Assembly: GCA_039621445.1 (NCBI GenBank)
Contig: CP154954.1
Coordinates: forward strand, 12,394,716 to 12,458,715
Origin: Euglena gracilis
Taxonomy: Eukaryota
Direction: 5' to 3'
DNA length: 64,000 nucleotides
Part shown: one piece after another, positions 42,151 through 62,827 of the stretch
Layout: each line of letters opens with the position of its first letter
Numbering within the stretch: the first letter of the stretch is position 1
Made by a program: the position numbers and the translations under genes
The notes under the pieces: model-generated
What the model saw: the letters and a program-made list of their open reading frames with translations, nothing else
What the model was told of the DNA's origin: nothing
Databases searched by the model: none

Positions 42151-45100
42151 ATGTCTCCCAGCCCCGGGTTGTGGCCCGGCCACCCCGACCGTATCCGCGG
42201 GGCCGGTGGTGGGCCGCTAGGGGCCGTGCCCCGGAGGTGGCTCATCCCGGTGTTAGTGCTCGCGTTCATGGCGATGGGGCTGTCTGCTGCCCATGCTCAA
42301 CAATGTTGGCCCATTGTTTGGGGATTTGCACTGGGTTTGCCTGCAAATCAAACCTCCGCTTCGCCCAGCCTGTTGGGGCCCACTTTGCTGGGGCCAACTG
42401 GGGGGGGGACAAGATGGACACCTCTTTTTCTGGGTGTGCTTAAAAAATTGGCTGTTTTGATCACCTTTCCATGAATAAAAAGGTGCAGAATCTTCCCATA
42501 AAGATTTTTTGTTTGTTCATTTACTCTGCCTAGGTGTTTTTGATGGGTTTGGGCCTTTTGGTCCTGGATCGGGGATTTTTTTGGACTTGGTTTTCAAGCT
42601 GTCGAAACAAGCCGTCGATTTGTGATATTTTGATGGTTTTGGGGGAGAATTCCTCCGCAGCGTTGCCACACTGTACGCACATCTGCACGCGCATTTGTCA
42701 ACATCCTTCAGGGTCGTCCTTCTTCCTTCTTTTACCAATATCAGGAACCTGTGTCCGTGAAACCCTCAACCCGCTCCAGTCTCGCCTTCCACGCCCTCCG
42801 CCACTGCCTGCCCCCAATATCCCCAAAGTGTCTCAGCTGGCCCGACCTTGCCCCGACCGCCATCCGCGTCGTTCTGGGCCCGGCACCACCCGGCCACCCT
42901 TCCTCACACGCAGCTGCCGCGAGCTGTTGCGTGGCCGGCGGTTGGGGGGCGAGCCGGCTGGGGCATAGGCGTGTGCTACCGCTGCTACCGCAAACTTTTT
43001 ATTTTGCACACATTGCATTTTTCCCGCAGATTTTTTATTTGTCCTCTTTATTTTTATTTATTTATGTACAGATTTATTATCTTAAAATATAAATAATAAT
43101 ATAAATAATAAATATCAATACGCGCGCCTTCTTCGTTGCTTTGTGCTTGCAGACGTTTCTGGAACCAGTTTGCCATTCAGGGGGGGGCATGGCAGGGACC
43201 AGGCGGTGGCACAGCAGGGACCAGCCGCGCCAACGGCCCGTGGAGCACAGGCGCCGCCACATCCTGCCGCTGCTGCCACCACCACCAGTCTGTGGGGTGC
43301 CTGGCGTCCCACGGTGCCTTGCGCATGTCTCTCTTTCAACCTGCAGGGCCCGCCCCTTTGGTGGTTGAATTAGACCCCCCCCCCATGTCCAACAACCCCC
43401 CTATTTGTATCCCCCCCCCCCGGCCGCAGGACACCTTTTCGAGGTTTCCAGTCCGCAGACAACCTTAAATGGCTGATTGGAAGAAAACCACCGCAAAAGT
43501 GCCCATCGATAACAAAACCGCAACAAAAAATCATTTTGGGTGCCTTTAGTCATTTTCCGGCTGTTTTTTTTTTTAAGGCCCAAATCAGTTGGTTTTGCCA
43601 CCACATCTCACCAAGTCTATGCCAATGGCCACCGCATCCCAGGGTCAAACGGGACCACAGGGCCACCGAACGTTGCCATCGTTCGGCACCAACCCCCCCA
43701 CCAGTGCACTGTGGCTGCCAGCCGGTCAGTGTCCTGTCCGTGCTGCTGCTGCTGCTGCTGCTGCCCCTGGCGGCTGTCCTCCGTCTCACGGGCCGTGGAC
43801 CAGGGCGTAGCTTGATAAATTTTGACCCCACCCACCGGGGGGGCCAGCCAGCCAGCAGCCTTTTTCCAGCCTGGACCCCCTTCCCCCCCTCAACGAGATT
43901 GATTTATTTCCAGCCGCCTGAAGGACTGCTGGACGGAAACTTTTTCAATTTTTTCGCATTCGGGGGTGCAAAAATGGGCGAAAATGCGTCAGATTTGGGC
44001 TGGCCAAGAAAAATTTGGTAAAAAAATCGATTTTTTTTGCACAATTGGCAGTTTTTGCATTTTTGATTTTTTTGGTTCCTGTTTCGACCCCAAGTCGGGC
44101 AGCTCCAGCTCGGGACCCCTTTGGGGAGGGGGGGGAGTCAGCCAGCAGCCTTTTTCCAGCCAGCCCAAACTTTCCAGCCTCTGAGCCGGACCCGGGGGGG
44201 GGGGTCGTTTGAAAACGCCCTGCCCCTGACACCGTGCGCAGTGGGGGATGGCCACTGCCACGCCGGGGTTGCTGGGCTTCAAGGTGCCATGTGCCTGTGA
44301 CCTGCAACTTGTGCACTTCGTTCCTCCCCTTCTGTGCTGGGCTTCTTTTTAAGGAAGTTCACTCCCCCCCCCAGGCAGGGGGTAGGTCACTTCCGACCCC
44401 TGGGGGTGATGTTTTGGGTGCAGGGTTTTGGTTTTTTTTTTTAGCCTTGGACCCCCTCCCCCAGAGGGGAGGGCGGGTGGGTCCCTTGGACCCCCTCCCC
44501 CCCGGGGGGGGGGGGGGGGTAGGGGCTGGTGGGTATATCTTTTTTCTCAAGCACCGTGGGGGGTGTGACATGGCACCACCCACCCAAACAGGGTTTTTTA
44601 AGACCGGGGGGAGGGCGGAGGGGGTCGGCAACCCCCCCCCCCACCCCCCTGGGGGCCCCCCCACCCCCAGGGGGGGGGGGCCCGGGGGACCCACCCACCT
44701 TTGCCCGAAAATGGCCATTTTCTAGGGAAATTTGGTTTGGCAAGCACGAAAGCCGACCCCCCCACCCCCGGGAGGTGTGCCTGGCACCCCATTGAAGGCA
44801 CGTTGGTAAGAGGCCTGCTCTGCACCCCCCAACCTGGCCAACCCGTACCTTTTGCTTTTTTTTTTGGCAAACGGTTGCCTGAAAACCACCACCCAAATAC
44901 ATTTGGTTTCACTTTTTGAAAAGTTTGGTGGGAATGCTTATTGGTTTTTTGCTCAGGTGTTGGAAGAAAACCCCTAAAATCTGGGCCTGATCTTGCCAAC
45001 CTGGCCTCATCCCAGGTATGCAGCTGGCCTCCCCTCCCCTCCACCCTGGGGGGGGGGGCAGGCAAGCCTTTTTTCAGCCGGCAGCCTGACCCTCCTCAAC

Positions 45101-48100
45101 GAATTTTGGTTCCTCTGCAGACGCCAGAGGCTGGCAGTAACTTATTCTCAGCCTTGGCGGAGAGAGGAGAACCGGAGACCCCTTTTTTGGTTTTCTTTTT
45201 CGGTTTCCCCCTTCATTTTCGACCCAAAGTGGTCGACAACGCGATGCCGACCGTTTCTGACCGTTTCCAACCGCACAAAAATTGGAAATCTGGGTGACAT
45301 TTGGTGGACGTTGAAGTGACCATGGTCATCGCACCTTGCACCTTGCTTTGATCCAATTTATGCCTTTTCTCTTTAATAGCGATGTCACATTTCTCCCGCC
45401 GAACAACCTCAGTATGGGCCATGTGGGCACAAACGGAGGGAATGGTTGACATTGTGGAAGACACAGAAGACCCTGGTGCGACGTTTGATAGTTCTCAAAA
45501 ATGCATCCATCACGTCTTGATGATTTTCCAACCCTTGCCCCAATTGCCGTGGCATACAGGCTTCTTTTTAAGGGTTCCCAGGTACACCAAAGGGGGGGGA
45601 CTAGACTCGCTCTAAGCCTTGGATTTGGAATTGGAGGCACAGGGAAGGAAATTTTGACAGAGGGACACTATGGCCATGGGTGCTTGGCGATGGGAAACGT
45701 GCCGTTTTCTGAACCCGAACCAGCGCAGCCACCCCCTCGCAGCGGAAGGGGACGCAGCCCTGGACCGGAAGGAGGAAGCGAGGCGCATTCGGATGGCCTT
45801 GCTCTTCCCACCGCCTACCGACCTGACGGGTGTGTGCTGTGTCACCGCCCCTCCTCAATCTCATGTGCACTGCACAGCATGGCTCAGATGGCGCAACACT
45901 GCCCAGGGAGGCAACACTCCAAATGCTCATTTTTTTTGTCCCCGAATGGCGGCGACCCTGTGTCTTTTGGCATTACTTACAGAAATGGTATACATCTTTC
46001 GGCCTCGGCCAAAAACACAGGATCACAATCAAAATCAAATCAAAATCAATCACAATCACAGCTGACTCCCCCCAGCTCTTTGGCCGACTCTCCACCAGCA
46101 TCCAAATGTAAAGACCCCTGACCCCTGATTCCCCTCCCCTGACTGGTTGCAATGAATTTAACTGACACAGCAGAAAGAAGAGACTCTCCGAACACAGGGA
46201 GCCCCAAAATATTAGCAACCCTGAAGCCCAACTTTCCAAAACGTTAGCAGCCGGCTGCCAGTGCTCAGGGGGCTTTAGTTTGATTTGGGGTCGCATTTTT
46301 GGCCAATGGGTAGGGACATATAATGTGAATCCTGTTCCCAATTTTTTTGGGAAATTTGGAGAATTTTTAGGGACCGAGTTGAAGTCATGGCCAGATGTAT
46401 GTGGGGTTGCCTAGACGGAATTATAGGACGAGTTTGGGCCCTGTTTCAGACCAGAGTTAGGCCGAATTTAAACAAAATCCGGGCCATATTCCCGCAAAAG
46501 GTCAATGTTCTCCCCGGCCTGGTGCTTCACGCCGGGCTGAAAATCGGTTGCCATGGCCATGCCGCTGTCCCAGACCTCTGTTTAGTGTGTATAGGCAATT
46601 TTTTTTTGTGTATCGGTGTGTATCGGCAAAAAAAATTGTGTATCGGTGTGTATCGTTGATCCACACTAAACAGAGGTCTGCACTGTCCCCCCATGAACCC
46701 CCCCACCCCGCCCCCGCCTTTGGCCTCAACTCCCACTGAGCTTGTACGACTGCTGTTAGGTGCGAATTCTGGTGGGCCCCCCACAGGGATGGTGCTGGAC
46801 GAGGCGGTGCTGCGGCACTTTGACCTGCTGGAGGTGTCCACCCCGCAGCCGGGGGTTTGCTTAATTTCCAAGCCAGGGGTTATTTTTTAGTCGTGGCCTC
46901 CCGGGGGGGGTAGGGTGGGTGGGTCTGGCCGAGCCCCCCCCCCCCCCAGGGGGTCACCCCAGGTGGGGTCACCCCAGGGGGAGTGGGATAAACTTTTCGG
47001 CGCCGAAGGCGTCGAAAATTTTTGAAAAAGTGCTATTTTTGGTATTTTTCGCGATTTTTGGATGGGTTCCCCCCGACCCCGCCCCCCCGGCCCCCCCTCA
47101 GGGGGTGGGTGTGGGTGGGGGCCCCTACCCCCCCCTCCCCGGTCTTTAAAAAAAACCACTGCTGCCAACCAGCGCCCCAACCGAAACAAGGGCGCGGTCT
47201 GGGTGACCGATTTTCGGCCCGGCGCAAGGCGCCGGGCCGAGAAGCGTTGACCCTCCAAAACGACCAAAAGTGCCATTTTGGGCACTTTTTGGCAAAAGAA
47301 TTGTGCAAAATGGAAAAAATTTCGGCGCAAAGCGCCGGAAGGAAGAATTGACCTTTTTGGGGGGTCCCCATTCCCCCCCCCCCGACCCCCTGGGGAGGTC
47401 CAGCCGGCACCCCTTTTTTTTCCAGCCGGCCTCGGGGCCCCTCGGAGTGCTTATAAGAAAACCCCAGCCCGCGGCTATTGGCGTGCCCGCAGCTTCGGAC
47501 TTGCAGCATTGAAGCCCTGCGGGCCACCCAGCGCAGGGCCGGCTGTGGAGCTGCCCGGTTGCCCCGCAGAAGCCACCCGGGAGACGGGAGGGGCGGAACG
47601 CAAACGCGCTTTTTGCATTTTTTTGCATTTTTTTGCATTTTTTTGCATTTTTTTGTGTGTTTTCAATTTCGGCAAAATGTTTCCTGCGCCTTTTGATTTT
47701 TTTTTTGTGTCGCGTTTTTCGAGGGTCTGTGTTGTGTTTCTCCCCCATACTGGGGGGGATTTTGAACAGGAAAATTTGTTGTGGGAAAAATTCTGGACGA
47801 AATTTTTTCCACGATTTCTCCCGCCATTTTTAAGGATCCACCCAAGGATTTTTCCTGGAAAATTTATGAACATCCAATGTCCTCAAGTGAATGCTCAAAA
47901 ACCTCTCTCGTCTTCGGCGCTTCGCGCCGATTTTTGGAGTATTTATGCTCCAAATCACTTGTTTAGAATGTGGTCATCCTTCAACAGGGGGGGGGGGGAT
48001 GCGCCCCCCCTCCCCGGTGCAGCAACGCCGCCCTCGCTGTCTTGGTGTGTGGGGTCAGGGCTGCAAAAAAATCCCCAAACCCCACGTTTGGTGCCTATGG

Positions 48101-51100
48101 TTGGTGTGGTTGGGGGGGGGTCGACCCCTCCCATCCAGGGCCAATTTTTCGGTCAAAGATTTTCTTTGGCACCTTGGGTGTCGAAGGAATTTTTCCTTGC
48201 TGTGCTGGGACCGGGGGAGGGTCGACCCACCCCCACCTTCTGGGTGGGAAGTCGACCACCCATGCCCACCTTTTGTTTACAGCTTTGGTGGGGGGTTGAC
48301 TTACCTCCCCGACAGATTGGGACCCCAGAGCCATCCAGGCAGGAAGTAGTAACACCGAAGGTTTGTTTTTTTTGCATTCCACAATCACCAAGCATTCGAC
48401 AGCCTGTGCGAACCCTTCGGGTTCAGCCGCAGAATTGTTGTGTGTGTGGTGTGCAACATGTCCCCCCCCCACCAACCGTTGCGTTTGGGTTTCAGGATTG
48501 TGACAGGGTCGTTTTCGTTGGGGCTTGCTTGAAATCGTACTCGTACTCATACTTGTTCAGCTGGAAGTTGCATATGTTCATTTTTGGACGATTTCACACT
48601 AGCGTGGTTCAACAATGAAAAACAAGTGCATGCACCTGGGCAAACCAACATTTCATTTTTGCGCGTTTGCACCACGCTTTTTGGTGTAACATTTTTTGGT
48701 GTTTTCCTTAGTTTTTCTGAAAACGCACTTGCACTTGTACTTGCATTTGTGCATCGCTCCGTTCAACGTTTCACCGCCATTGTCAATGTCCGGCTCCTCA
48801 TTGCATCCGGTCAGGGGTGGTCTAATCGGCACACGTTTCCGTTGGGGGAGGACAGAGCCCTGGCCAGGGAACTGCTGGAGTCCTATTTCGTGGACGTGCC
48901 GTGGGCCGCCGTGGGCCAGGCCGAGGCAGCTTCAGCCACTCCCTTGGGGCTGAGCGACACTTGGTTTTACACCCTAGATAGTTAGGCGTCGGTTTCTGCT
49001 CAACTGTTTTGAAGCTTTCCTAAACTTTCCTGGTAAATGGGGTGGTTTTCTGTTGCCACCAAGTTGGCGCTACAGCCTGAGGGGGCTCTATTCTCCGGGT
49101 AGGGGGGTCCAGCCAGCCAAGGGTCTTTTCACAGTGCCAGACACCCAATCCGGGGAGTGTTTTTCCATTTCAAGCATTTCCCGAAAGTTTCCGAGATTCA
49201 AACCGATTCAAATGTGAGATTCCTAAAAAACATTGCCTCCTAAAAAACATCCGGTTGGGTCATAAATGGCACAAACGGAAAGCACAAGCGTGCAACTGAG
49301 GCGTGATTTATGCCTAACCAGTCCCAGCCCGGTCCACCCACCGTGGGGGTCCACCTGCCCCTCGCCTTCCAGCCCGCGGAGCACCTCGCTCCTCTCGCCT
49401 CCCTCCTCGACGAGGCCGGGGTGATGGCCATGGCCTGCCGGAACCCCCAGCCTGAGGGTGGGCGAAACAGCTGTGGGGATGCAAATGGAAATTGCGATGA
49501 TACGTATAACTGCGTGCGCATCGCACCCCCGGAATTTGGCCTTTGGACTGGTCTCGCCAATTTGACCCCCCCCCCCCCCCGTGAGGTTCTCACCGATCAT
49601 GATGATGTTGTCTCTTTGGGCCCGCAACAGCTGACTTGTCACGTTGTAAGGTCCACCACTCGGCCTTCTTCGGTTGACAACGAGGCTTGTACCAGCTGAC
49701 TCTCTGGGGAGGGGGGGGGCAGGTTGGTGCGTAGTTGGCCCTTTTCGGCTAGAATATGCCCAAGGATTGCTGGCTAACTTTTGTGCTGCTTTTTGAAATA
49801 CCAGTCAGGGTCCCTGACTGAATTTTTAATGAATTTTTGAAAATTGAAAAATGTTCCACTCTTGTCCTCAGGGTTATTATTTCTATATTATTTTGAGAGT
49901 TTTGTACAGGTCTGAGGGGGTCCAAACCCCCCCTCCAGGTCCCCACTCTAAGTTGTTGAGCCGTATCCGCCGGCAGTTGGTTTTGTTTCCCAAAACTGGT
50001 TCCCGACCTCCATGGTGAGCATTCCAAATTTTTTTTTTGGCATTGCCTGCACTTTGTTTTATCAAAAAGATTTCCTGGCGCTTTGTGCTGGAAGATTTTA
50101 TTCAAAAAGTCATGTTTCCACGCATTTTTTTAATTCGAAGAATGGGCCCAAAACATACAAAATTTTTCTCCGAAATTTGTCCAACGAAAAGTGCGGTGAA
50201 AATTCTTTTTGTCACCAGGGAGGTTCCGGATCCCCGCTCGGGTTTGAAGGGGGCAGGGCGTGGGGCAGCCCAGAGGCTGGAAGCTCTGGGCTGTCTCTAT
50301 GTCTGAAAATGCTGCTGGCTGCGCCCCTCCCCCCCTCGCCCCCCCAAAAGGTCTTCCAGCTGGTGCTGGCCCCATGGGGTTCAAATGAACCCGGAACTCA
50401 AAAATCGAAACCGAAGAGATTTCCCAAAATGGCCAATTATGAAAAATGGATTTTGCACCCAAAATTTGAGCCGGCGAGCCCTTTTCCAACCCATTTGATC
50501 CCATACTTAACCCATTTTTACACCCCTGCATGGCAAAAATTTGTTGCCATTCAGCCGCCCTTTGTGCGGCTGCAAAATAAATTAAACTCGTTGATGGGGG
50601 AGGAGGGGTTCAAAGCACGAAAAAGGTGGTTCAATAATTTTGGGATCAATTTTTCGCTTTTTTGCTTTTGCATGTTTGAGAGAAGCTTTTTTTTGTAGTC
50701 TGTTGGGGTGACCACCATAAAATGGTTGAAAATGTCAAAATGGCGTTGAAAAAGGCCAATGGCCCCCTAAAATGGTTTTTTAAACAGTCCAAAATGAATT
50801 ACAATTGATGCTAGATATTGATTTTGACGATGCGGCAATAAATGGACAAAAGTTGATAATGCTTGGCCAAAATGGTCAAAAAAATGGACCGAAATGGCCG
50901 ATAAAAGGGGGGAGGAATGGGGTCCCAACTCACCCCCCTCCCTGTCATCTAATATCCTGCCAGTCCTGCCCGAAAGTTGGCCTCTGTGCCTGTACTCACC
51001 AACCTGGCTTTATATTTTTATTTAGCAGGTTTGCCTCCCCCTCTGTACTCGCCAACTGTATGGGCGCAGAGTACGTGTTTAGGTACACCTGTCAACGTAT

Positions 51101-53997
51101 GCACACACAGAAATGAACGTGGGCACACAAATATGTGTTCCCCCCCGCCGAAACTGTGATCCCCGAAAACCTGTTCGGCGACGACTTGCAAGTGGGGGGG
51201 GGGGGGGGGGAAGAGGTCGACCAGTGGTTAGGGAGCCCATGGGAATGGTCCACCGCGCTCTGTTCGCCATCCCGCGGCTGTTCGACAAAGACGCGGGGGA
51301 GGTACGGCGCCTGCTGGAGGTGCTGCGGACCGACCAACGGAGGGCGTTGGGTAACGGTGCCGGGCCTTGCATTGGGACTCCTTGGTTTGTGTCGTGTGGC
51401 GGATATTTTACGAACAAGGCCTCGTCCTCACCCTGCCTTTTGAGGAATTTTTGATGCCTCGACTATTTTTTGGGCGGGCGAATAATCTGGGATCATAACT
51501 CGAAAAGGAACGTTGCTTCCCTCCAGGCGAGCTAAATGATGGGGGTTTTTGTTTATTTGATTGATTTTTAGAATCGGCAACAATAATAGGAAAAAGCGTT
51601 CCAGTTTGCAATTTGGCTGTCAGCGCGAGGTTTTATTGATTTTGACCTTCTGTCCCCAGAAAATTCACACATATTGGCGCCGACCAAACCATCTTCACAC
51701 CCCTCTTTGCCCCGACAATAGGCAACCGTTTGGCATTTTTTGTCCTCTTTTAAAGTTAATAGGAAAAAAGACACTGATATTTCCTTTGCTGTTGACATTG
51801 GCCGACCTCGTCTTGTGCCCTGCAGACACTCTCCTGCAATCCAATGGAATCCGGGTGGGCGACGCCCTCAACGAGGTTCCCCACATCCTGAACGTCGAGC
51901 TGCCGACGCTGCAGCAGCGCCTCAAGTACCTGACCGACCTGGGGGTGGACGTGGCGGTCCTCAATGCAACTCCAGTGGTGTCTCCATGCACACATCCCGC
52001 CATCGTTCACCCCCCGTTCAATATCCATCTTGGAAAAGTCAAAAAGCACGCTTCCCATCAAAATGGCAAATTTTTATATTATTCTTTATCTTATTATTAT
52101 TAGAATTATTATTTATTAGTATTATTATTTTATAATTATAATTTTTGTTGTTGTTGTTGATGTTGATGTTGTTGTTATTGTTATTGTTGCTACTGCAGCA
52201 GCTGTTGTTATTATTGTTATTATTATTGTTAGGTTCGTTTGTTTATTTGAGAATCAAACCGAATCGTATTGGACCCGAAAATCGGCCACCAAAAGTGGTC
52301 CCCCCTCCTCCCTCCTCCCCCCAGTGGGTGGGTGAGTGGGTCTGGACCCCCCCCCTCCCACGGGTCCCACAAAAAACTTATGTCTGCAAGTTGATTTGGG
52401 GGGTCGGCCGTATCTGCCTGGGGCCCCCCGGTCAACGGCGCTGCTGCGGCCCAGCTACTACGTGGCGGCCGTCGCCCGGCGCCTAACGGAGCTCGGCCTG
52501 GCCGCGCCGGCGGTGCTCGCCGCGTCGCCGCAGGTGCTGGTGGAGGACTGGGAGGCGGGCGTGCTGCGGCGGGTGCGGTACCTGCCCGGGCCCCCCGCCA
52601 TCCCCATCTGCCTGCCTGGGTGTGGGCCCCTCCGAGTGCCAGCGCAGAACGGAAATTGGCCAGACACCCAGCCCAGCCCAGGGTGGTGGGCCCCACCTCC
52701 CATATATCCGGGAGCACCAATTTTCGACCTCCCCAAAATTTTTTCCCGGCGCCTTCGGCGCCGGGTGGACTTGTTAAAGAAATCTGTGAAAATGCTGTGG
52801 TGGGAGGTGGGGGGTGGACCCCACCCCACCAGGCCTTCCCGTTCTGCCCTGCCGAGCGGTTTGGTGCCTGTGGTCAGGGGGGCGAGGGTGCTGCATGTTC
52901 AGCCTCAATTGAAGTGCGGGTGCGCTCTTAGCGGACCTCCGCCTCCAGCACCACCTGTCTGATTTTTGTTGATTTCCTTTCAGAATTACTGTCAAAAATG
53001 GGGTGTGCTTGAGTGGGCCGTTGCCTTCGGTGGCGGGGGGGGGGTGTGCTTTTATTTTGACACTGCCCATGCTTCTATTATGAGGGGCGGGTTTATGAGT
53101 GGCATTTTGCAGCTTTGTGTGTTGGCGCGTTGGACATTTGTGTGTTGCGTGACACATATGTTTGTACGCATGTTGCACACAGGGAAAGCAACGTATTCTC
53201 AAATGATGGTTGCAACACATGAAACCATTGAACGACACGAGATGTTTGAGGGCAGCTGAACAGCGTTGCCTCCGGTTTGCTGACAAACAAATGGGGTTTG
53301 GGGAAAAGAAGCGGCGGCCTGCGTTCAACAAAGAAAATCGGGGCCCCCAGTCAGAGGCCTCCTGTGCAAAGGAATTCTCCCCGCAGGAGACTGCCACGCA
53401 AAGCCCATGCACGTCCCCTGTCATTTTCCCCACGCATGCCACCCAAAGTTTGGCATTGTTTATTGGTTGCAGTACTTCATAACCTTGCAGTATTTCCCAC
53501 ATTTCCCCAAAATCAAAGTTGTTTCTGTTTTTTCTTCCCTTCCCAACTGTACCCCATCCCATTTACCCCCCCCCCCCTTTGCCCACTGACCACCCCTGGA
53601 CAACGACCACCCCCGGTCGAGGGTTGCATGTAAGGGGGTGCCTATGACCACCCCCTTGGTCGGGGGTTGTAGGAACCCGGTCGGTAGGCAAGGGGGGGGG
53701 GTAAGTGCACGGGGTGTGCACATTATTGGACCGACGTTTCGGACCCTCATGGGTGTGATACTTATTTGGGCAACCGCACACCAGTTTGGGCACCGCGCAA
53801 TTAAATGGGGCAGTTCACTCCCAAAGGAAGATTCCAAACACGGAGTGGCATATTTTTTTGTGTATTCATATAAGTCGTATTTGTGCACACATAATTTGTA
53901 TTTGGAGCCTTCACCAAACGTGTGGTTTTTTTGAAGTGCAGTTACTTGACTGCTTATGGAAGGTGGCATCAAAGTGGCAACCTGCGTAATAATAATA

Positions 53998-54032
<35 letters not shown>

Positions 54033-54033
54033 C

Positions 54034-54068
<35 letters not shown>

Positions 54069-55945
54069 AATAATAATAATAATAAATGATGCTGCTGCTG
54101 CTGCTGATGATAATAATTATAATAATCAGACTCGGCTTTTAGTCTCCATCAGCCCTGCACCTCACCACAAAGAATCATGCCGACAAAACGTTGCCCTTTT
54201 AGAGAGAAACAAATCGATAAACTGCCAAAACTGGTTGAACAAAAAAAATGGGGAAAAAAAGGGTTGAACATTTGAATTGTTCAAGGATTGAACGGACTCT
54301 CCCAAAAGGCCCCCACAAAACCAACCGCGATGCGCATTCCAGGGGAAGATTAAAGCGTTCCGCAATTTTGAGGATTTTTGCGATTTGAGGATTTTTTTGA
54401 AATTTGCTATTTTTGCATTCTTTCATTGAAATATGAGGCCCAAAAACTTCGAGATTTGCCAAACTGATCTCAATTATGCCGGGGAAAAAATAATAAAAAC
54501 TGGTTGACAGAAAAAATGAAAAAAAAGGGGTTCATTTGTAAAAAGGATTGAAGGACTTTGAAAAAGGCCTCCCCAAACAAAAAAAAAAAAATCGATTGAG
54601 GGAGAATAACGTTCCGTTTTTGGGATTTTTTTTTTGGTTTTTTTGATTTTTTTTTTTTTGCATTTTTTTTTGTGATTTTTGGATTTTGTGTTTGCTGAGG
54701 GTGTATGATGTACATGGTTGTTACGTTTTTTTTTCTGTTAGTTGGTTTTTCTGGGGTGTGGAGTGTTTCAAAAGGATGGGGGGGGATGGGTTTTGTGGTG
54801 AGAATGATTGATTTGGCGACTGGGCTGGTCTTTGAGAACAGATTTAAATGAAATCCTTGCAATTAGCGCCATTGACAGTAGCAACCCCCTCCCCCCGATG
54901 GACACAGCACGTTTCTTGCTACATCTGATGACTGAATTGCCGAACTTGGCACCCGAGGCCCTCTGACCTTGTCTCTGCCATCAACGGCTTCCCGGCCTAT
55001 TTGGGGCTGCCGTTCCGGTCCGTCATCCGAGCGCGGTACGAGTACCTCCGGCACCTCGGCCGGCCGGGCCCCCTCCCCCTGCGGACAGTGCTCCAGCCCG
55101 CCGACCTCGAGTTCGCGCGCCGGGTGGCGGAGTCGACGTTCACCCAGTCTGTGCCTGTCCCTCTGTGTCTGAAGTGCCGATATGCATTCTGTTGTGAGAC
55201 GGGGCTGAAAGGTGCTGGTGGATGACACTTAATCCACAATCAACAGGGCTTCGACGCACCTATTGTGGTTAGACCTGTGGCTTGTTTTTTAGTATCCTCA
55301 CACCCACATTCCTGCACCCTCTCCCCCCCACCCACCCACCCACACAGCCCCCCGCGCATTCACCCGCCCAACCCCCCCCCCCACAGACTTGCATGAGTGC
55401 GCAGGCACGCATGCATGAGGGCGTGCACACGCACGCACGCACGCACACACACACACACACCTGTGCACATGCACAAACACAAACATACATGCGCGAATGC
55501 AAACACACACGTATGCAATATGTAATATGTATATAAAAGAATGTGCATTATTTTTCATACCTCCAAATTTGTGGGTCATACCCAGCCCAAAGCCCAATTT
55601 TACACTATTTTTGCCGTTTATTGCCCAAAATGTCCGCTTTGACAGAGTCACTGCCACCACAACCACCGTTGACAGCTCCACCATGTGTCGCTCCATCCTC
55701 CATGCTGTACGGTACATATTGACACCCAGTCCCACATACGCACCCCACCCGTATTGCACACAAAGCACACTATCGCGGCTTGGCGCACTGTGGCCGAGGC
55801 GTACATGACGTGGCGGTCCAAAAACGCACGTGGCTGGAGGAGGCGCCGCCCGCCCCGCCCCAGAAGCAGCGTGGCCGGCCCCCGTTTGCACTCGTCGCGA
55901 GCCTGTCCCCCCGCTGACGCGTTCCACTGCCAGCATGGGCCTTGA
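42151..55945 (+). CDS. mTERF-family protein with euglenid-type plastid-targeting presequence, ~20 exons
   Basis: Exons: 42151-42294, 42703-~42907, ~43723-43797, 44228-44283, 45121-~45169, ~45299-45317, 45429-45475, 45743-45829, 46787-46846, 47473-~47570, ~48024-48044, 48815-48907, 49343-49425, 50267-50282, 51230-51350, 51826-~51967, ~52434-52583, 53353-53395, 54977-55141, 55796-55945. The spliced protein has repeated P-x-x-L...L..lG motifs (EVPHILNVELPTLQQRLKYLTDLGV; ASPQVLVEDWEAGVLRRVRYL) and a typical mTERF C-terminus (FPAYLGLPFRSVIRARYEYLRHLG...VLQPADLEFARRVAESTFEAY). The family was recognised by eye, without an HMM. Confidence 0.8.
43798..44227 (+). other. Nonconventional intron (mTERF gene)
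   Basis: gacCAGggcgt...acgccCTGcccct forms an 8-bp perfect stem, with CAG at +4..6 and CTG at -8..-6. The join is in frame: GRG-HRAQWGMATA. Confidence 0.8.
46847..47472 (+). other. Nonconventional intron (mTERF gene)
   Basis: agccgggggttt...aaaccccagcccgc has paired ends and c|a, c|g junctions. The join is in frame: EVSTPRLLACPQL. Confidence 0.75.
53988..54126. repeat. (AAT)n/(ATG)n/(GCT)n trinucleotide array (intronic)
   Basis: Direct reading. Confidence 0.9.
55142..55795 (+). other. Nonconventional intron (last intron of mTERF gene)
   Basis: accCAGtctgtgcc...ggcgcaCTGtggcc; removal gives VAESTF-EAYMTW. Confidence 0.8.
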
Positions 55946-57167
55946 CGCCCGCACAAAAACATGGGTCCTATTGAGGGTCTGCCTCGCTTGCCACGTTTGG
56001 CACAAATAAAATTTCTTTCACTGCCAGCTCGTGACTGCAGACGAAACACCTGGTCCGTGCATGTAACCAGACAAACAAAATCTGCATTCATTTTTAACCT
56101 TTGAAAGGGTCCCCATTTTTTATTTTTTCTGAAAATTTTCAAAATAAAAATACCCATACCGTGCTGAATTTACAAGACTGAATGTCAAGGCCCCCAGATG
56201 CAGCATGCCTCTGTTTGGCCTCACAAAACCCGGGTAAAATGGTTACAAGGCAAGTGCGTGGCGGCGTGGTGGGTGGGCTGGGTTTGGGGATTTGTGGGTG
56301 GGTTGTGGGATGGGTGGGGTGTTGGGGGTTTGTGTTTGTTTTGTTTTGGGGTTTGTTTCAGTGATTTTGTGGTGGTGGGGGGTGTGGGTGGGCTGGGATC
56401 TAATTTTTTTGGGAATGGTATTTTGGGACTTGGGATCGTGGACTTTTTGGGATGAGGAATTCGAAAAGGCAGTTTCCCACCGGTATGTGCCAGTTCGCCC
56501 AACGCAGCAACCTATATTTGGCTGAGCGAAAGGGGCACAACACTTCCCCAAAGTGAACCAAACGTTTTTCTTTTTTGGCTTCTTGGACCAAAAGCTATGG
56601 GCAGGGTGATTGTATCGGCAACGTCAGCAAAAAAAAAAAAAAACGCTGCAACGACCGGAAAAACACTTTCCTACCCTCAAATCATGATTGGATTAAACAA
56701 TGGAAGGAATGGACGGGAAATAGCAAATTCGTTTTGTGGCCTGAATTCTGTATCCAGAAACATATGGATGGAAATTTTTATATTATATATAATAATAATA
56801 TATAATATCAGATATTAATTTTTATAAAAACATGGAAATTTCTGACAAATAACATTTGCATTCATACCCCGAGGTCCAGGTGCCACCCCCTCCCTCGGCA
56901 AGGGATGGCAAGCAGAGGTTTTAAAAAAGAAACAACAACAACTCTGGTCTGAACCAGAAATGCTACGGGCGAAAGCAGAGCCCTCAACACGCATGGGCGG
57001 TACTCTCCGACCCCAGCTGTGGCACCGCAGACCACCTCACATCACCGTGGTGGTATCTGTGGAGGACAGGGGTTTTTCTTTTTAGTCTTGGACACCCGGG
57101 GGAGAGGGGGGTAGGGTGGGTGCGTGGCCGAGCCTCCCCCCTGGGGGGTCCGCACAGGGGGGGGATA

Positions 57168-57573
57168 TACCTCCCCCCCCCCTTGTCTAAGCACCACCCT
57201 TGTCTAAGCACCACCCCCCCGGTTCTTACCCATCTTTTTACAGGTCATCGTCACGGGGAGGTTTATTTTGTGTGCATTTTTAAGGGAAATTTCTCAAAAA
57301 TTTCGAAATTTCTGCAACTTCTGAGACCTGATTTGGTGAGGTATTGTTGATTTCTGCATCCAAATGTGTGTAAGTTCAACAGTGCACCTTCAAATTAAGG
57401 GGAATTTTTCCTTTTCGGCGCGAAGCGCCGGATTTTTTTTGCAGTCAAATTTTTCCCCCCCCCTTGTCTAAGCACCGCCCCCCTGGTTCTTACCCATATT
57501 TTGGCAAAATAAGCACCACCCCCCTGGTTCTTACCCATCTTTTCCGGTTCTTAGACAAGGGGGGGGGGAGGTA
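57168..57573. mobile_element. TA-bounded MITE family D
   Basis: Ends tacctccccc..ttgtctaag / cttagacaag..gggaggta. Homologous copies lie at 17916-18307 and ~58330-58706. Confidence 0.8.
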
Positions 57574-58057
57574 CTTTTCGGAAAGCGCCGAAGGCGCCGA
57601 AATTTTTTTAAAAAGGCGCTATTTTTAGTATTTTCCCAACTTTTTGGCCATTTTCCAGGAAAATTGAGTGGGTCCTCTGGGACCCCACGGGGGGGCCCCA
57701 GGGGGTGGGTGGGTGGGTGGATGTGGTCCCTTCCACTCCCTGCATCCGAGGCCCTTGGCAGAGACGGCTGTTCTGTGTGGCTGTTGACTGACCCCTCCTG
57801 TCCATGTCGACACGGCTCGAGATGAACACACTCCGCCGCTCCCCGGACCTTGGGACAGTGGACCTGCCTGCCTGTTTCTGGGCTGCTTGCATTGTCCCCA
57901 GAACAGCTCTCCCGCAGTCCTTTGCCTCAAGTTTCGCATTTAATTAATTAAATTTTTTTTACTGTTTTATGTGGATGGATAATGGAACAGAATCCCAGAG
58001 AGTGGAGACGCCCAGTGTGACCCCCTGGTTGTTTTAAAAGTCATGCAACTTACCTCA

Positions 58058-58283
58058 CAGGTTGCAGGTCATGGGGGTGTTATGACCCCCCCCCCCCGGT
58101 CAAAGGTTGCAGGTCGCGTCCCCCTCCTTCTACGACCCCGCCCCCCCCCCCCCCCCCCCCCGGTCTACACAGGGGGGGGGCGGGTAAGGACCGCCCTCGC
58201 AGGTTGCAATTATGGGGGTGTTACGCCCCCCCCCCCCCTGTCACAGGTTCCAGGACCCCCCCCGGTCGTACGACAAGGGGGGG
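58058..58283. repeat. Tandem duplication of a ~130-bp unit
   Basis: caggttgca..atgggggtgttat/c..Cn..Gn cgggtaaggaccgcc occurs twice. Confidence 0.75.
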
Positions 58284-59306
58284 GGGGCGGGTAAGGACCG
58301 CCTTGGTGTGTGTGTGTGTGTGTGTGTGTCCCCCTCCTGTCTAAGAACCACCCTTGTCTGAGCACCACCTCCTGGTTCTTACCCGTCTCTTTAAAGGTCT
58401 TCTCGGGGAGGCTTATTTTGTGTGTGTGTTTTTAGAGAAATCTCTTGAAAATTTTGAAAATTTTAGAAATTTCTGAAGCCTGATATGATGAGATTTTGTT
58501 GATTTTTGCATCCAAATTCCTATGAGTGCAACTGTGGACCTCCGAATTAAGGGAAATTTTTCCTTTTCGCCGCGAAGCGTCGGAGTTTTTCGCAGTCGAA
58601 AATTTCCCTCTTGTCTGAGCACCACCCCCCGGTTCTTACCCATAGTTTGGCAAATATATTTTGTGCTTACCCATGTTTTCCAGTGCTTAGATAAGGGGGG
58701 GGGGAGGCAGGGTTCGATATAAGGACGGCACACGGGGTTTAGGTGGGGCTGTCACCCTCACCCCTCCCCTCCTGGACCGGAGGGGGGTCCGGACCACCTC
58801 CCACCTGCCAAGTGCGGACCACCCCGGGGGGTACCCGGACCCCCCCAAAAGGACTTTTCCGCGGAAAATTTTTTTTGACAAAATTTTGCCCAAAAAGTGC
58901 CCGAAATGGCACTTTGGGCTGTTTTGGGGGATCAAAATTATAGGCCCGGATCAACGCACCGTGCTGAAAATCAGTCACCCGGACCGCGACACTCCCCCCC
59001 CCCCTGGACCGGAGGGGGTCTGGACCCCCCACCTGCCCTTTTATCGAAGCCTTGGGGAGGTACACTTCTTATTCCAGTGTATGAGCCCCAAACAGCCAGA
59101 GTCATGGGTCAGGGAATCGGCTGGGCACATGTTTTTCTGACACGTTTTCCAAGTGGTGCATATCTCCAGTCTCAAATAGCACCAGAGCAGATAATTGCTA
59201 AAACTTTGGCTTTCAAGGTTCCGGGGGGGGGGGGTGGGTGAATGGGTTTTTTTGGGCTGCTCACCTCTCCCCAGGTGAAGCGAAGTTGAGGGTTTGAGAT
59301 TGGGTT

Positions 59307-59606
59307 CAGGGGTTTTTTTAAGACCGGGGGGGGGGGGGGGGGGGGCCCCCCCAACCAGCCCACCCCCGGGGGGGCCCCGCCGGGGGGGGGGGGGGTCCCA
59401 GGGGACCCACAAAAAATGGGCGAAAAATCGCGAAAAGTGCTAAAAATAGAATTTTTTCGGCGCCTGCGGCGCCGAAAACTATATCCCACCCCCCTCCGGG
59501 GGGACACCCCCCCCCCCCCCCCCCCCCGGGGGGGGCTCGGCCGGACCCACCCACCCTACCCCCCCCTCCCCCCCCCCCCGGGGGTCCACGACTAAAAAAA
59601 CCCCTG
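59307..59606. mobile_element. hAT-like MITE family B
   Basis: Ends caggggtttttt / aaaaaaacccctg; TSD attgggtt on both sides. Inverted relatives lie at ~46874-47161, ~33998-34210 and ~57067-57720. Confidence 0.85.
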
Positions 59607-59991
59607 ATTGGGTTGTGTTTCCCCCAAAAATGGTCCCGGTGCGAAGTGCGGAACTTTTTTTTCGGGCCTTTTTGTCTTCCTTTGTTTGCACGTTCGTCGT
59701 TTTCGACAGTGACCCTCCTCCCAGGGGGGATGAGGAGAGTGCCTGACTGGCTTTTGGAAAGTGACTGTCCAATTTTTTTTTTCAACATGGAAAGTGGGAA
59801 CCTCGTCCTCCCTCACCAGCAGAAAGCTCAAACGATTGCCTGCACCAGGGTCGCCAGTTCTCCCTCAGAAACTGCCATATCCCATATGCCCCAAAACCCG
59901 CCGGTGTCCGTCAGCGTCCCCCGGGTACCGGCCAACCCCCGCACAAAACTGTGGGTGGGCCCAGCCCTCCCCGTGCCCCAGGCCGCCACAC

Positions 59992-60157
59992 ATGCCCGGC
60001 TTCGCGCCGGCCGCCCCGCCGCTGGCCCCCGAGGCCGTGCGTGCGCTGACAGCCCTCCTCGGGCAAGTCCGCCGCCTGCTGGTCGTGACGGGGGCGGGCT
60101 GCAGCACGGAGTCCGGCATCCCCGACTATCGCTCCCCGTCTGGCAGCCTGTCCCAAG
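59992..60157 (+). CDS. SIRT4: SIRT4-type (class II) NAD-dependent sirtuin, first recognisable exon
   Basis: MPGFAPAAPPL..RRLLVVTGAGCSTESGIPDYRSPSGSLSQ contains the Sir2 GAGxSTESGIPDYR motif. The GT donor is at 60158. A pyrimidine tract and CAG at 59979-81 lie upstream, so an earlier exon or a trans-splice site is possible. Confidence 0.92.
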
Positions 60158-60293
60158 GTGTGGTTGGACTGCCGTGCCCCTGCAGCGTCTCCCCCCCTGA
60201 GTGGTTTACGTGTGGCCCTTCATCAATAAGTACCCCCCCCCCCCGGAAACTGTCACCTGGCACGTTGGTGAGTACCAGGGACCTTATACCTGA

Positions 60294-60711
60294 TAAACCC
60301 CCCCCCAAATAAGACCCCCCCATAAAATGGACCCCCCCCCCAAAAATAAGACTCCCCCTGGCCGGTCCAAGCAAAAATCCATGAAATGGACCCCCCCCAT
60401 GAATAAGACCCCCCCTGCCGGCGCGAAGCGCCAGATTTTTGAAAAATGGTACATTTTTGGGGGGAAAATCTGCTATTTTGGGACTGTTTTCACACAATTC
60501 AGCATATTTTACCCTATTTGTCTGGCGCGAAGCGCCGAATTTTTCGAAAAGTGGTATTTTGGGGTGTCATTTTTGGACATTTGGGGGGTCGAAAATTTTT
60601 CCAGCAAAATCCATAAAATGGACCCCCCCCCCATGAATAAGACCCCCCCTTGGGCTTTCCAGCAACCGACCCATGAAATGGACCCCCGGTCTTATTTTTG
60701 GGGGGGGTTTA
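60294..60711. mobile_element. TA-bounded MITE inside sirtuin intron 1
   Basis: Ends taaaccccc..aaataagacc / ggtcttattttt..ggggttta; subterminal aaatggaccccc and aataagacc repeats. Confidence 0.7.
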
Positions 60712-61131
60712 GTTTCTGAGACATGACAGTGTCCCGGAGGGGTTGTTTGGGTCCCCAGAAGAAGCTTGCGATCCAGTTGCCACCACCCTTACAATTTTAA
60801 ACCTTACATTTCCCATCCAAGTTGGTTTGTGTTTCCTGACACTTTCAGCAAATTGTGCCTATCAGCCTATTGTTCTTTTTCATCATTATTTATGTGTGTA
60901 TGATTTTTTATTTGATTATTTTGTGTACGATTCTTTCGTCTGATTTGTCAACGTTCATGTCAATGAAATTCAAAGCTGTCATCTGTCGAAAAAGCCCGAT
61001 TGATTTTGCTTCCAGGCCCCGATGCTAAAACGAGAGGGTTGCCACATGACTGAAAGTACCATCCTGTCCATGGAGTTGTCTCCTGTCTGGAAAAGTCTTC
61101 TTCGGAGGACAGTGGTGCTGCTGTCTCTCAG

Positions 61132-61235
61132 GCCACAAGCCCACGACGTACCAGGAGTTTGTGAAGTCGCCCGAGAAGCGGCAGCGATATTGGGCGAGGG
61201 CATACCTCGGCTGGGACCGGTTTGCCCAGGCAAAG
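61132..61235 (+). CDS. SIRT4: Sirtuin exon 2
   Basis: GHKPTTYQEFVKSPEKRQRYWARAYLGWDRFAQAK contains RxRYWAR..GW, typical of SIRT4-class proteins. It is flanked by ctctcag and gttttc and joins in frame. Confidence 0.92.
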
Positions 61236-61476
61236 GTTTTCCCCCCCTGTTTCCTTTCTTGAAAATATAGTCCCCAGCTTTTTTTTGGCCTTCTTTTGCA
61301 ACCTACTTGGAGGGTTGGAACCGCCGAGTGAGGTCGGGCTGGCAGTGCACGGTTGGCTGCTTACATGACAGGGGATGACAACTCTTTGATGACAATGCCG
61401 AGCCACGGGACGACGATAGCAAGTGCTTTGTGGTCCTCTGATGTGAGCCGGCTCTCCCCCCCCCCCCCCCCCACAG

Positions 61477-61533
61477 CCAAACGCCATACACTTCGCTCTG
61501 GCCGAGTTGGAGGCCCGCGGACGCGTCCACCAC
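61477..61533 (+). CDS. SIRT4: Sirtuin exon 3
   Basis: PNAIHFALAELEARGRVHH follows a C-run and CAG acceptor and matches the PNxxH motif. Confidence 0.9.
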
Positions 61534-62059
61534 ACCCAACGCTGCCGCTGGACGACAGAACCGTGGCCATCCAGTCCCACCCGCCGTCCTGTGAAATTCC
61601 CACCCCCACAAAACGAGCACACAGCGCAGAAGACACTGTCGGCCCAACATGGCAGCTTGGCCACTTTGGAAAGCTCCACAAATTTGTCACCCGGTTTGCA
61701 CTCGCTGCCTCATGGACCGGGGGGGGGGGCTGTTACGTAGGTCGTTTCCCCCGCCGCCATGGGAAGTTCCCAGTGAAGGTTTGCGCCGTGCATTTTAAGC
61801 TGAGCGGTTTTTTGATTTTTCCCAGACCCAGAACTGCACGTGAAATTGTTTTGGTTTTATATGGTTGTGTGCGTGCTATTTTTTTTTTGTGTGGTGCTTT
61901 TCGACGGCCGTTGCACCTGAAGCAGAAGCGAACGTACCTGTTCGGTGACCACTTCCCTGGGGGGGGGGGGGTGAGCAAACCATGGCTGCCAGCCCCGGAA
62001 CGGACACACGGACCAGCTCACTCTCCCGCCGGCCGCCGTGGCGCGGCAGCGGTGGCGCC
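61534..62059 (+). other. Nonconventional (non GT-AG) intron in the sirtuin gene
   Basis: The intron runs acccaacgctgccgc...gcggcagcggtggcgcc. Its ends form a stem with 12 of 13 pairs in the +4/-6 register, with Y|R junctions. Removing it restores conserved RVHH-VLTQNVD. Confidence 0.9.
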
Positions 62060-62155
62060 GTGCTCACGCAGAACGTGGACGGGCTGCACGCGGCGGCGGG
62101 CAGCCGGGCCGTCACGGAGCTGCACGGCAACGCCCGCTCCGTAGTCTGCCTCCAG
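62060..62155 (+). CDS. SIRT4: Sirtuin exon 4 (catalytic His); the rest of the gene was not found in the window
   Basis: [32 protein letters not shown] contains the TQNVDGLH and ELHG motifs and the first Zn-ligand Cys. GT follows at 62156. Confidence 0.93.
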
Positions 62156-62827
62156 GTCCCTTGCCCCATCCCTCACCGCTGTGATGGGGGGCCAGGACGT
62201 CTTAGCAGGACCTTTAAGCTGTAGGAACCCATCCCCCCCGGGGGGGGGGGTGGCTTTTCCAGCCAGCCCATATTTTCCAGCCTCTGAGCTGGACCCAGGG
62301 ATATGAAGGCGGTCAGTATTGGGTATGGGGGGCGACCCCCCCCCCCCGGGCGGGCGGTGAGGTGGGGGTGTAAGGGGTACCTGGCCACTCACCATACAGC
62401 AAACTGGGCCAGAAGCAAAGTTACCGCCGGCCATGAACAGAGACACAGCCATAGTGCAACTAGGGGGGTGGTAAAGTGATAGGGGGGATCTGGATCCCCA
62501 TGTGTTGGAGGGGGATCTGGATCCGGACCCCCCCTCCTCGGCAGGTTCCAAAAGCGTGAACTTTTTTCCAGTGCTGCCACCGGAAAATGAGCAAAAAAAA
62601 ACACGTTTTGCTTCACTTTTGAGCATATTGCCTATCTTTTGATGTTTTTGTGTTTTCCAAGTCAGAAGTGTTCAATTTTTTAAAAAAAAACATTTCAAAG
62701 AAAAATCAGGGGTGTCCAACAATTTTGGCCTTGTATCTGGCCCTTTGCCTGTCCACAAAACCAAAAAAATTCCGGCCATATCAGTTTCGATGTGGGGGGG
62801 GGGGGCTACCCCCCCAAGGCTTCCCAC

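Follow-up and report, generated by a model that had tools for sequence, protein, structure and literature searches.

Introns without GT-AG borders and with paired ends in an mTERF-family gene and a sirtuin gene of Euglena gracilis

How are the borders of an intron fixed when the GT-AG dinucleotides are missing? The question is raised by a stretch of 64,000 nucleotides (nt) from Euglena gracilis (assembly GCA_039621445.1, contig CP154954.1, positions 12,394,716 to 12,458,715 of the forward strand), hereafter the window, which carries an mTERF-family gene and a sirtuin gene. An earlier note on this DNA had proposed that most introns in the two genes are nonconventional and are defined by pairing of their ends in a fixed register. 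In this report, we have placed the boundaries of these introns with transcript-derived proteins and compared the pairing of their ends with controls. Most of the borders are not GT-AG, helices lie in register with the splice sites, and the intervening segments are absent from the transcript-derived proteins. We conclude that this is very probably a nuclear locus of E. gracilis at which most introns of both genes belong to the euglenid nonconventional class, with removal defined by structure. The architecture of the locus is eukaryotic, with long introns (carrying G/C runs and repeats) between short exons. All features described below are on the + strand, and positions are those of the window.

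The intron boundaries were derived from two proteins. P0001 (eukprot:EG_transcript_8533, 490 amino acids (aa), Pfam mTERF) was found using the 55-aa translation of one exon (54977-55141), and P0002 (EG_transcript_17989, 288 aa, Pfam SIR2) was found using the first sirtuin exon, to which it is 100% identical. We take the EG_transcript names to denote proteins translated from the E. gracilis transcriptome. Both proteins were mapped by tblastn, and at each junction all donor/acceptor pairs within 20 nt that gave the fewest protein mismatches were enumerated. The exons of the window were found to be 92-100% identical to the two proteins. The identity to the EukProt EG_transcript_* entries, 100% for sirtuin exons 1-2 and 97.6% for the mTERF gene, points to a euglenid host.

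The mTERF-family gene (42151 to ~55917) has 16 exons and 15 introns and is colinear with P0001, apart from a 2-nt frameshift in its last exon. The spliced model gives an open frame of 458 aa, in which 447 of the 458 residues are the same as in P0001. The segments taken out measure 250-1821 nt; were any one of them retained, the reading frame would run into a stop within 14-126 codons. All of the proposed intron segments are absent from P0001 and P0002. Residues 176-465 of P0001 align colinearly with a homolog, P0062 (44% identical), the only gap being 1 aa long, and this colinearity supports the micro-exon TKKIGAP, the RT|NG junction at intron 11, and the frame in which the last exon reads KRTWLEE. 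A word-based search for further mTERF relatives, made with residues 225-460 of P0001, gave P0001 alone.

The 15 mTERF introns comprise 13 nonconventional introns, one GT-AG intron, and one GC-AG hybrid. For 13 of the 15 mTERF introns and for one of the three complete sirtuin introns, no GT-AG or GC-AG option exists among the best-scoring boundaries. The earlier note had reported that about 14 of 19 mTERF introns lack GT-AG; mapping of the transcript-derived protein upholds the majority and reduces the total to 15. The nonconventional share (13-14 of 15) thus exceeds the one first given, since that model contained four surplus introns. The single sirtuin intron said to lack GT-AG was confirmed as intron 3, introns 1 and 2 being GT-AG. 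The mTERF gene had also been described as alternating between GT-AG and nonconventional introns, which is not the case, as it has only one GT-AG intron.

Pairing between intron ends was quantified for a set of 15 introns consisting of the 13 nonconventional and one hybrid mTERF introns and sirtuin intron 3. The register is expressed as an offset d, where position +k pairs with position -(k+d); the +4/-6 register corresponds to d = 2, that is, +4..+6 paired with -8..-6. This is the pairing reported as the most conserved part of nonconventional introns (+4, +5, +6 with -8, -7, -6; Milanowski 2016, PMC4770533). Each junction has 2-8 positions that are compatible with the transcript, because short direct repeats or synonymous codons allow the boundary to slide, and a slide of 1 nt alters d by 2. 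At d = 2, and at some allowed position, the triplet +4..+6 is fully paired in 10 of the 15 introns. An uninterrupted helix of at least 6 base pairs (bp) starting at +2..+7 was likewise found in 10 of 15, and 12 of the 15 have either the paired triplet or the helix.

These frequencies were compared with those obtained when the ends were cross-paired between introns. A helix of at least 6 bp was found in 9.5% of the 210 cross-pairs (binomial P = 1.2e-7) and a paired triplet in 28.6% (P = 0.002), the latter rate being inflated because many introns have CAG/CTG in common. The offset profile has its maximum at d = 2 (10 introns), with 6-7 introns at d = 0 and d = 4 and 0-2 at odd offsets; the counts at d = 0 and d = 4 arise because the same helices reappear through boundary sliding. 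Each intron was also shifted diagonally over at least 31 positions; the best helix at d = 2 coincided with a position allowed by the transcript in 10 of the 15 introns, versus 1.59 expected (P = 1.9e-7). The pairing in the +4/-6 register described in the earlier note therefore stands well above the controls.

Folding of the intron ends, which had been suggested as a check, was carried out on constructs of 16 nt + U7 + 16 nt. The mean minimum free energy (MFE) of the terminal folds was determined to be -15.2 kcal/mol versus -10.0 kcal/mol for cross-paired ends (Mann-Whitney P = 2e-5). The values for the GT-AG introns were -8.5, -4.1, and 0 for mTERF intron 6 and sirtuin introns 1 and 2, respectively, with no helix between the ends. 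A purine is present at intron position +1 in 14 of the 15 introns and at the first base of the next exon in 14 of the 15; neither feature played any part in the choice of boundary.

Genomic knock-ins have provided a splicing code, 5'-N3CDG-/-CH'GN5-6|R, which requires the helix, the spacing, and a purine as the first base of the following exon (Nomura 2025, PMC12501133). The spacer at the 5' end has to be exactly 3 nt, that at the 3' end is 5 nt, although 6 nt is accepted, and further pairing outside the triplet is required as well. Five of the 15 introns follow this code in full (mTERF introns 4, 8, 13, 14, and 15), and intron 7 follows it in part. Several others keep the register with different triplets: TGT/ACA, CCA/TGG, GGG/CCC, GTG/CAC, and CAT/ATG.

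The mTERF introns are nonconventional unless otherwise stated. Intron 1 (42299-42854, AA..CC) has an interrupted in-register helix at +3-5, +7-11, and +13-15, an MFE of -11.2, and four compatible boundaries (42296-42299). Intron 2 (42969-43218) has a 12-bp helix from +4 with the triplet TGT/ACA and, as the residue at the junction is not that of P0001, eight boundaries score alike. A helix of 9 bp from +4 (CCA/TGG) was found in intron 3 (43306-43719, GT..CC), for which two boundaries are compatible. Intron 4 (43798-44227) carries CAG/CTG in an 8-bp helix; six boundaries score alike, and three residues in the region of the junction differ from P0001. Intron 5 (44262-45740, 1479 nt) has a helix of 5+4 bp from +4 with GGG/CCC. 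The one conventional GT-AG intron is intron 6 (45830-46786), which contains a C-rich tract and whose ends are not paired. Intron 7 (46847-47472) has a 7-bp helix from +6, a CGG/CAG pair with a mismatch in the middle of the triplet, and six slidable boundaries. Intron 8 (47531-48867) is the hybrid, which combines GC-AG ends with CAG/CTG and a 6-bp helix from +4.

Intron 9 (48908-49342) has a 7-bp helix from +4 with GTG/CAC. Intron 10 (49426-51246) is the longest at 1821 nt, with a 6-bp CCATGG helix from +3 and six slidable boundaries; the alignment with P0062 is ungapped at its junction. Intron 11 (51331-51841) is atypical and has three boundaries (51330-51332); its RT|NG junction is colinear with P0062. 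At the junction of intron 12 (51974-52433), P0062 has its 1-aa gap. Intron 13 (52584-53326, 743 nt) has CGG/CTG and a 6-bp helix, and intron 14 (53349-54970, 1622 nt) has CAG/CTG and an 8-bp helix from +2. These two nonconventional introns flank a micro-exon of 22 nt (53327-53348), whose translation TKKIGAP matches residues 387-393 of P0001 exactly and corresponds to VKKIGGV in P0062. Intron 15 (55142-55795) has CAG/CTG within a 4-bp helix. Microsatellites are present in intron 14 ((ATG/ATA)n, 53971-54132, ~150 nt) and in intron 8 ((TTTTGCAT)n, 47591-47683).

Four exons of the sirtuin (SIR2 family) gene were mapped between 59992 and 62155 with P0002. Introns 1 (60158-61131) and 2 (61236-61476) are conventional GT-AG introns, the second with a C-rich tract. 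Intron 3 (61534-62059) is nonconventional and shows in-register pairing at +3-5 and +7-15 (3+9 bp). Intron 4 begins with GT immediately after exon 4 (62156 onward); its 3' end and the last 147 residues of P0002 were not found within the window.

A number of observations weigh against the conclusion that these introns are defined by paired ends in a fixed register. The boundaries are defined at the level of protein only, and those of the mTERF gene come from a transcript that is 97.6%, not 100%, identical and so derives from another allele or copy, possibly a paralog. Because the boundary was picked among 2-8 positions partly by register, the choice itself favors d = 2. Both the paired triplet and the uninterrupted helix are missing from mTERF introns 1, 11, and 12: intron 1 has only its interrupted helix, the best helix of intron 11 lies at offset -1/+1, out of register, and the ends of intron 12 pair weakly. 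For sirtuin intron 3, the boundaries 61534-62059 give Val where P0002 has Met, and the alternative 61535-62060 reproduces the Met exactly but shifts the 9-bp helix to offset 4. An allelic difference at this junction is plausible, given a second difference of the G-to-A type in the same exon. The full code was found in 5 of 15 introns versus 61.2% of nonconventional introns genome-wide in E. agilis (Nomura 2025, PMC12501133; binomial P = 0.027). The departure is slight, concerns a single gene in a different species, and is not counted as a finding. The last mTERF exon is frameshifted relative to the transcript: a run of five A's is present at 55815-55830 where P0001 and the homolog require three (SK|RTWLEE), and the C-terminal tail (55890-55917) is in a different frame from P0001. 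The 2-nt shift is either a homopolymer error in the assembly or the mark of a defective allele.

A different account of the same borders would be that these are spliceosomal introns with degenerate ends, as in diplonemids and tunicates, whose terminal helices are incidental or auxiliary. The presence of GT-AG introns in the same genes, and the union of GC-AG ends with a stem in mTERF intron 8, are what one would expect if this were so, and according to Gao 2024 (PMC11170887) dependence on the spliceosome had not been excluded experimentally. However, the helix keeps its register with the splice sites far more often than expected by chance, and the ends of the three GT-AG introns pair little or not at all. 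Knock-in introns require the helix and the 3-nt spacer, and wholly synthetic introns designed from the code undergo splicing (Nomura 2025, PMC12501133). We therefore regard spliceosomal removal of these introns as very unlikely.

Still less likely is an artefact or a nonfunctional copy, in which the segments would be unprocessed "introns" of a pseudogene or the product of template switching by reverse transcriptase across hairpins flanked by repeats. Most of the boundaries are slidable through short direct repeats, which is also a signature of template switching, and the 97.6% identity to P0001, the three substitutions at the junction of intron 4, and the frameshift in the last exon would all be consistent with a defective copy. 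These features are to be set against the length of the removed segments and the in-frame stops in all of them, the colinearity of the spliced protein with P0062, and the 100% identity of sirtuin exons 1-2 to P0002. In genomic knock-ins, moreover, the function of the protein was regained only upon removal of the intron (PMC12501133). Excision at the level of DNA would require that the introns are insertions resembling MITEs (miniature transposable elements with inverted repeats), which are lost from the DNA of some cells and not from RNA. The ends of the introns are indeed inverted repeats, the junctions have short direct repeats, and transposable-element-like repeat families lie inside these introns; an origin from MITEs is itself a published hypothesis (Milanowski 2013, PMC3935182). 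Against this, each of 15 DNA-type runs contains about half of the words sampled from the intron-bearing stretch, and removal from RNA, with RNA circles, is documented in the literature (PMC6221363; PMC12501133). The chance that this explanation is correct is close to negligible. The assignment made in the earlier note, to the nonconventional introns of euglenids, is thus supported by the transcript-based boundaries, the controls, and the published definition together.

If these are nonconventional introns, their removal may be envisaged as follows. In the pre-mRNA, a helix formed between bases from about +4 at the 5' end and bases from about -6 at the 3' end would juxtapose the two splice sites. 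One strand would be cut 3 nt upstream of this helix and the other 5 (or 6) nt downstream of it, after which the exons would be ligated together. The predicted catalysts are a structure-measuring endonuclease and a ligase acting independently of the spliceosome. The earlier note had called the machinery uncharacterized; excision as circles and a model with a tRNA-endonuclease-like enzyme have already been published. The model of such an enzyme was proposed together with the MITE origin by Milanowski 2013 (PMC3935182); among the 15 of 48 matches listed, this paper was the only one to bear on a role proposed for RNase III or RtcB in these introns. Nonconventional introns have been reported to be removed later than spliceosomal ones (Guminska 2018, PMC6221363), and their circular release was described by Guminska 2021, as cited by Nomura 2025 (PMC12501133).

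A stronger proposal, which we consider doubtful, is that the machinery measures from a helix of almost any sequence with a fixed stagger of 2 nt, in the manner of a ruler-type endonuclease that recognizes double strands. CAG/CTG would then be no more than the most frequent variant, one that may go back to a transposon. The proposal comes from the finding that 10 of the 15 introns do not have CDG/CH'G triplets and that most of these keep the helix at the same 3-nt/5-nt distance. The primacy of complementarity over sequence was argued already by Milanowski 2016 (PMC4770533). The mutants of Nomura 2025 favor some sequence constraint: the tested intron could not do without C at +4 and G at +6, and compensatory pairs were functional in some cases only (PMC12501133).

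The earlier note had listed nine introns for which placing the stem at +4/-6 restores the frame. Five of them are compatible with the transcripts: 43798-44227, 46847-47472, 48908-49342, 55142-55795, and 61534-62059, the last possibly shifted by +1. The other four have wrong coordinates. The segments 45318-45428 and 50283-51229 lie inside introns 5 and 10, respectively, and the exons supposed to flank them have no counterpart among the residues of P0001. The long intronic open reading frames (ORFs) at 45352-45612, 49952-50695, and 47251-48615 have no Pfam match, so the extra exons of that model are unsupported. For 52584-53352, the 5' end is right and the 3' end should be 53326, and 53396-54976 should read 53349-54970; these two had been placed around a wrong exon of 43 nt, and the actual micro-exon of 22 nt was overlooked. 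As written, six of the nine introns have a complementary triplet and three do not. Restoration of the frame by a stem is no evidence by itself, as intron 5 alone contains 23,196 in-register Watson-Crick triplet pairs and 4,758 pairs of start and end positions with an in-register helix of at least 7 bp. The stem triplet as the sole criterion has almost no specificity. The 111-nt segment at 45318-45428 has a 6-bp in-register end helix (CATGGT/GCCATG) and purines at both diagnostic positions, and it could be either a nested element resembling a nonconventional intron or a chance match, there being thousands of such pairs in intron 5.

A GT-AG alternative nested in intron 11 (51351-51825) is in frame but was rejected as a boundary of that intron, since it adds 12 residues that are missing from both P0001 and P0062. 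Intron 11 and this nested candidate are possibly a case of the "overlapping" alternative splicing that Gao 2024 reported. The 71-aa database "protein" P0102 is the same as an ORF of the window (51239-51454) that runs from exon 11 into intron 11. It was considered as a second transcript and discarded as a read-through ORF, an artefact of gene calling on genomic DNA that is uninformative about splicing. It does show that such introns can mislead annotation based on ORFs.

Repeat families in direct and inverted orientation are common to the mTERF introns, the intergenic region, and sirtuin intron 4. The repeat pairs are 44152-44197 / 62255-62300, 57194-57580 / 58348-58716, and 44591-44661 / 59311-59381, and 46883-46966 is an inverted repeat of sequence within 59324-59599. 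Many of these have flanks of G/C runs and palindromes of the GGCGCC type. The families look like dispersed transposon-like elements.

The intron class and its register (Milanowski 2016), and its majority status and genetically tested code (Nomura 2025), are already published, and the locus is an ordinary example that has little weight beyond annotation. In E. gracilis, 11,527 GT-AG, 659 GC-AG, and 16,151 nonconventional introns have been counted (Gao 2024, PMC11170887). In E. agilis, 71.8% of introns are nonconventional, with a comparable share in E. gracilis, and 84.4% are slidable (Nomura 2025, PMC12501133). The locus nevertheless provides a clean worked example, as reasoning from stem and frame with the sequence alone misplaced four of nine boundaries. 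Introns 2, 3, 5, 9, and 10, which lie outside the code, and the atypical introns 11 and 12 are possible substrates for the published knock-in assay.

The introns described here do not differ in kind from the nonconventional introns of euglenids (Milanowski 2014, 2016; Gao 2024; Nomura 2025). They have the same variable, non-GT-AG borders, the same helix between +4..+6 and -8..-6, slidable junctions with short direct repeats, and purines at +1 and at the start of the next exon; in both cases GT-AG introns occur in the same gene and the nonconventional type is in the majority. What sets this set apart is that 5 of 15 have the full code and that mTERF introns 11 and 12 show no clear pairing in register. 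The consensus reported for E. gracilis is CCAGG at +3..+7 and CCTG at -9..-6, and overlapping alternative introns were found as well (Gao 2024, PMC11170887). The hybrid mTERF intron 8, with its GC-AG ends, N3-CAG...CTG-N5|G, and 6-bp helix, is like the intermediate introns of euglenids and is the single case here. The conventional introns, mTERF intron 6 and sirtuin introns 1 and 2, resemble their Euglena counterparts in having GT-AG ends and no terminal helix, and the C-rich tracts of mTERF intron 6 and sirtuin intron 2 recall the C-rich polypyrimidine tract of conventional Euglena introns (Gao 2024, PMC11170887).

Two more distant systems invite comparison. The noncanonical introns of diplonemids, relatives within the Euglenozoa, also lack GT-AG and have ends that can pair, a likeness drawn by description only. 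The introns of tRNA are of the bulge-helix-bulge type, in which a 4-bp helix between two 3-nt bulges is cut by EndA/TSEN and the halves are joined by an RNA ligase. As proposed for nonconventional introns, the cut sites are read by structure and distance rather than by the sequence of the borders, and circular products have been reported for both classes. The analogy was already drawn by Milanowski 2013 (PMC3935182). The difference is that, in the introns described here, loops of 3 and 5 nt lie at one end of a single helix and the introns reach 1.8 kb.

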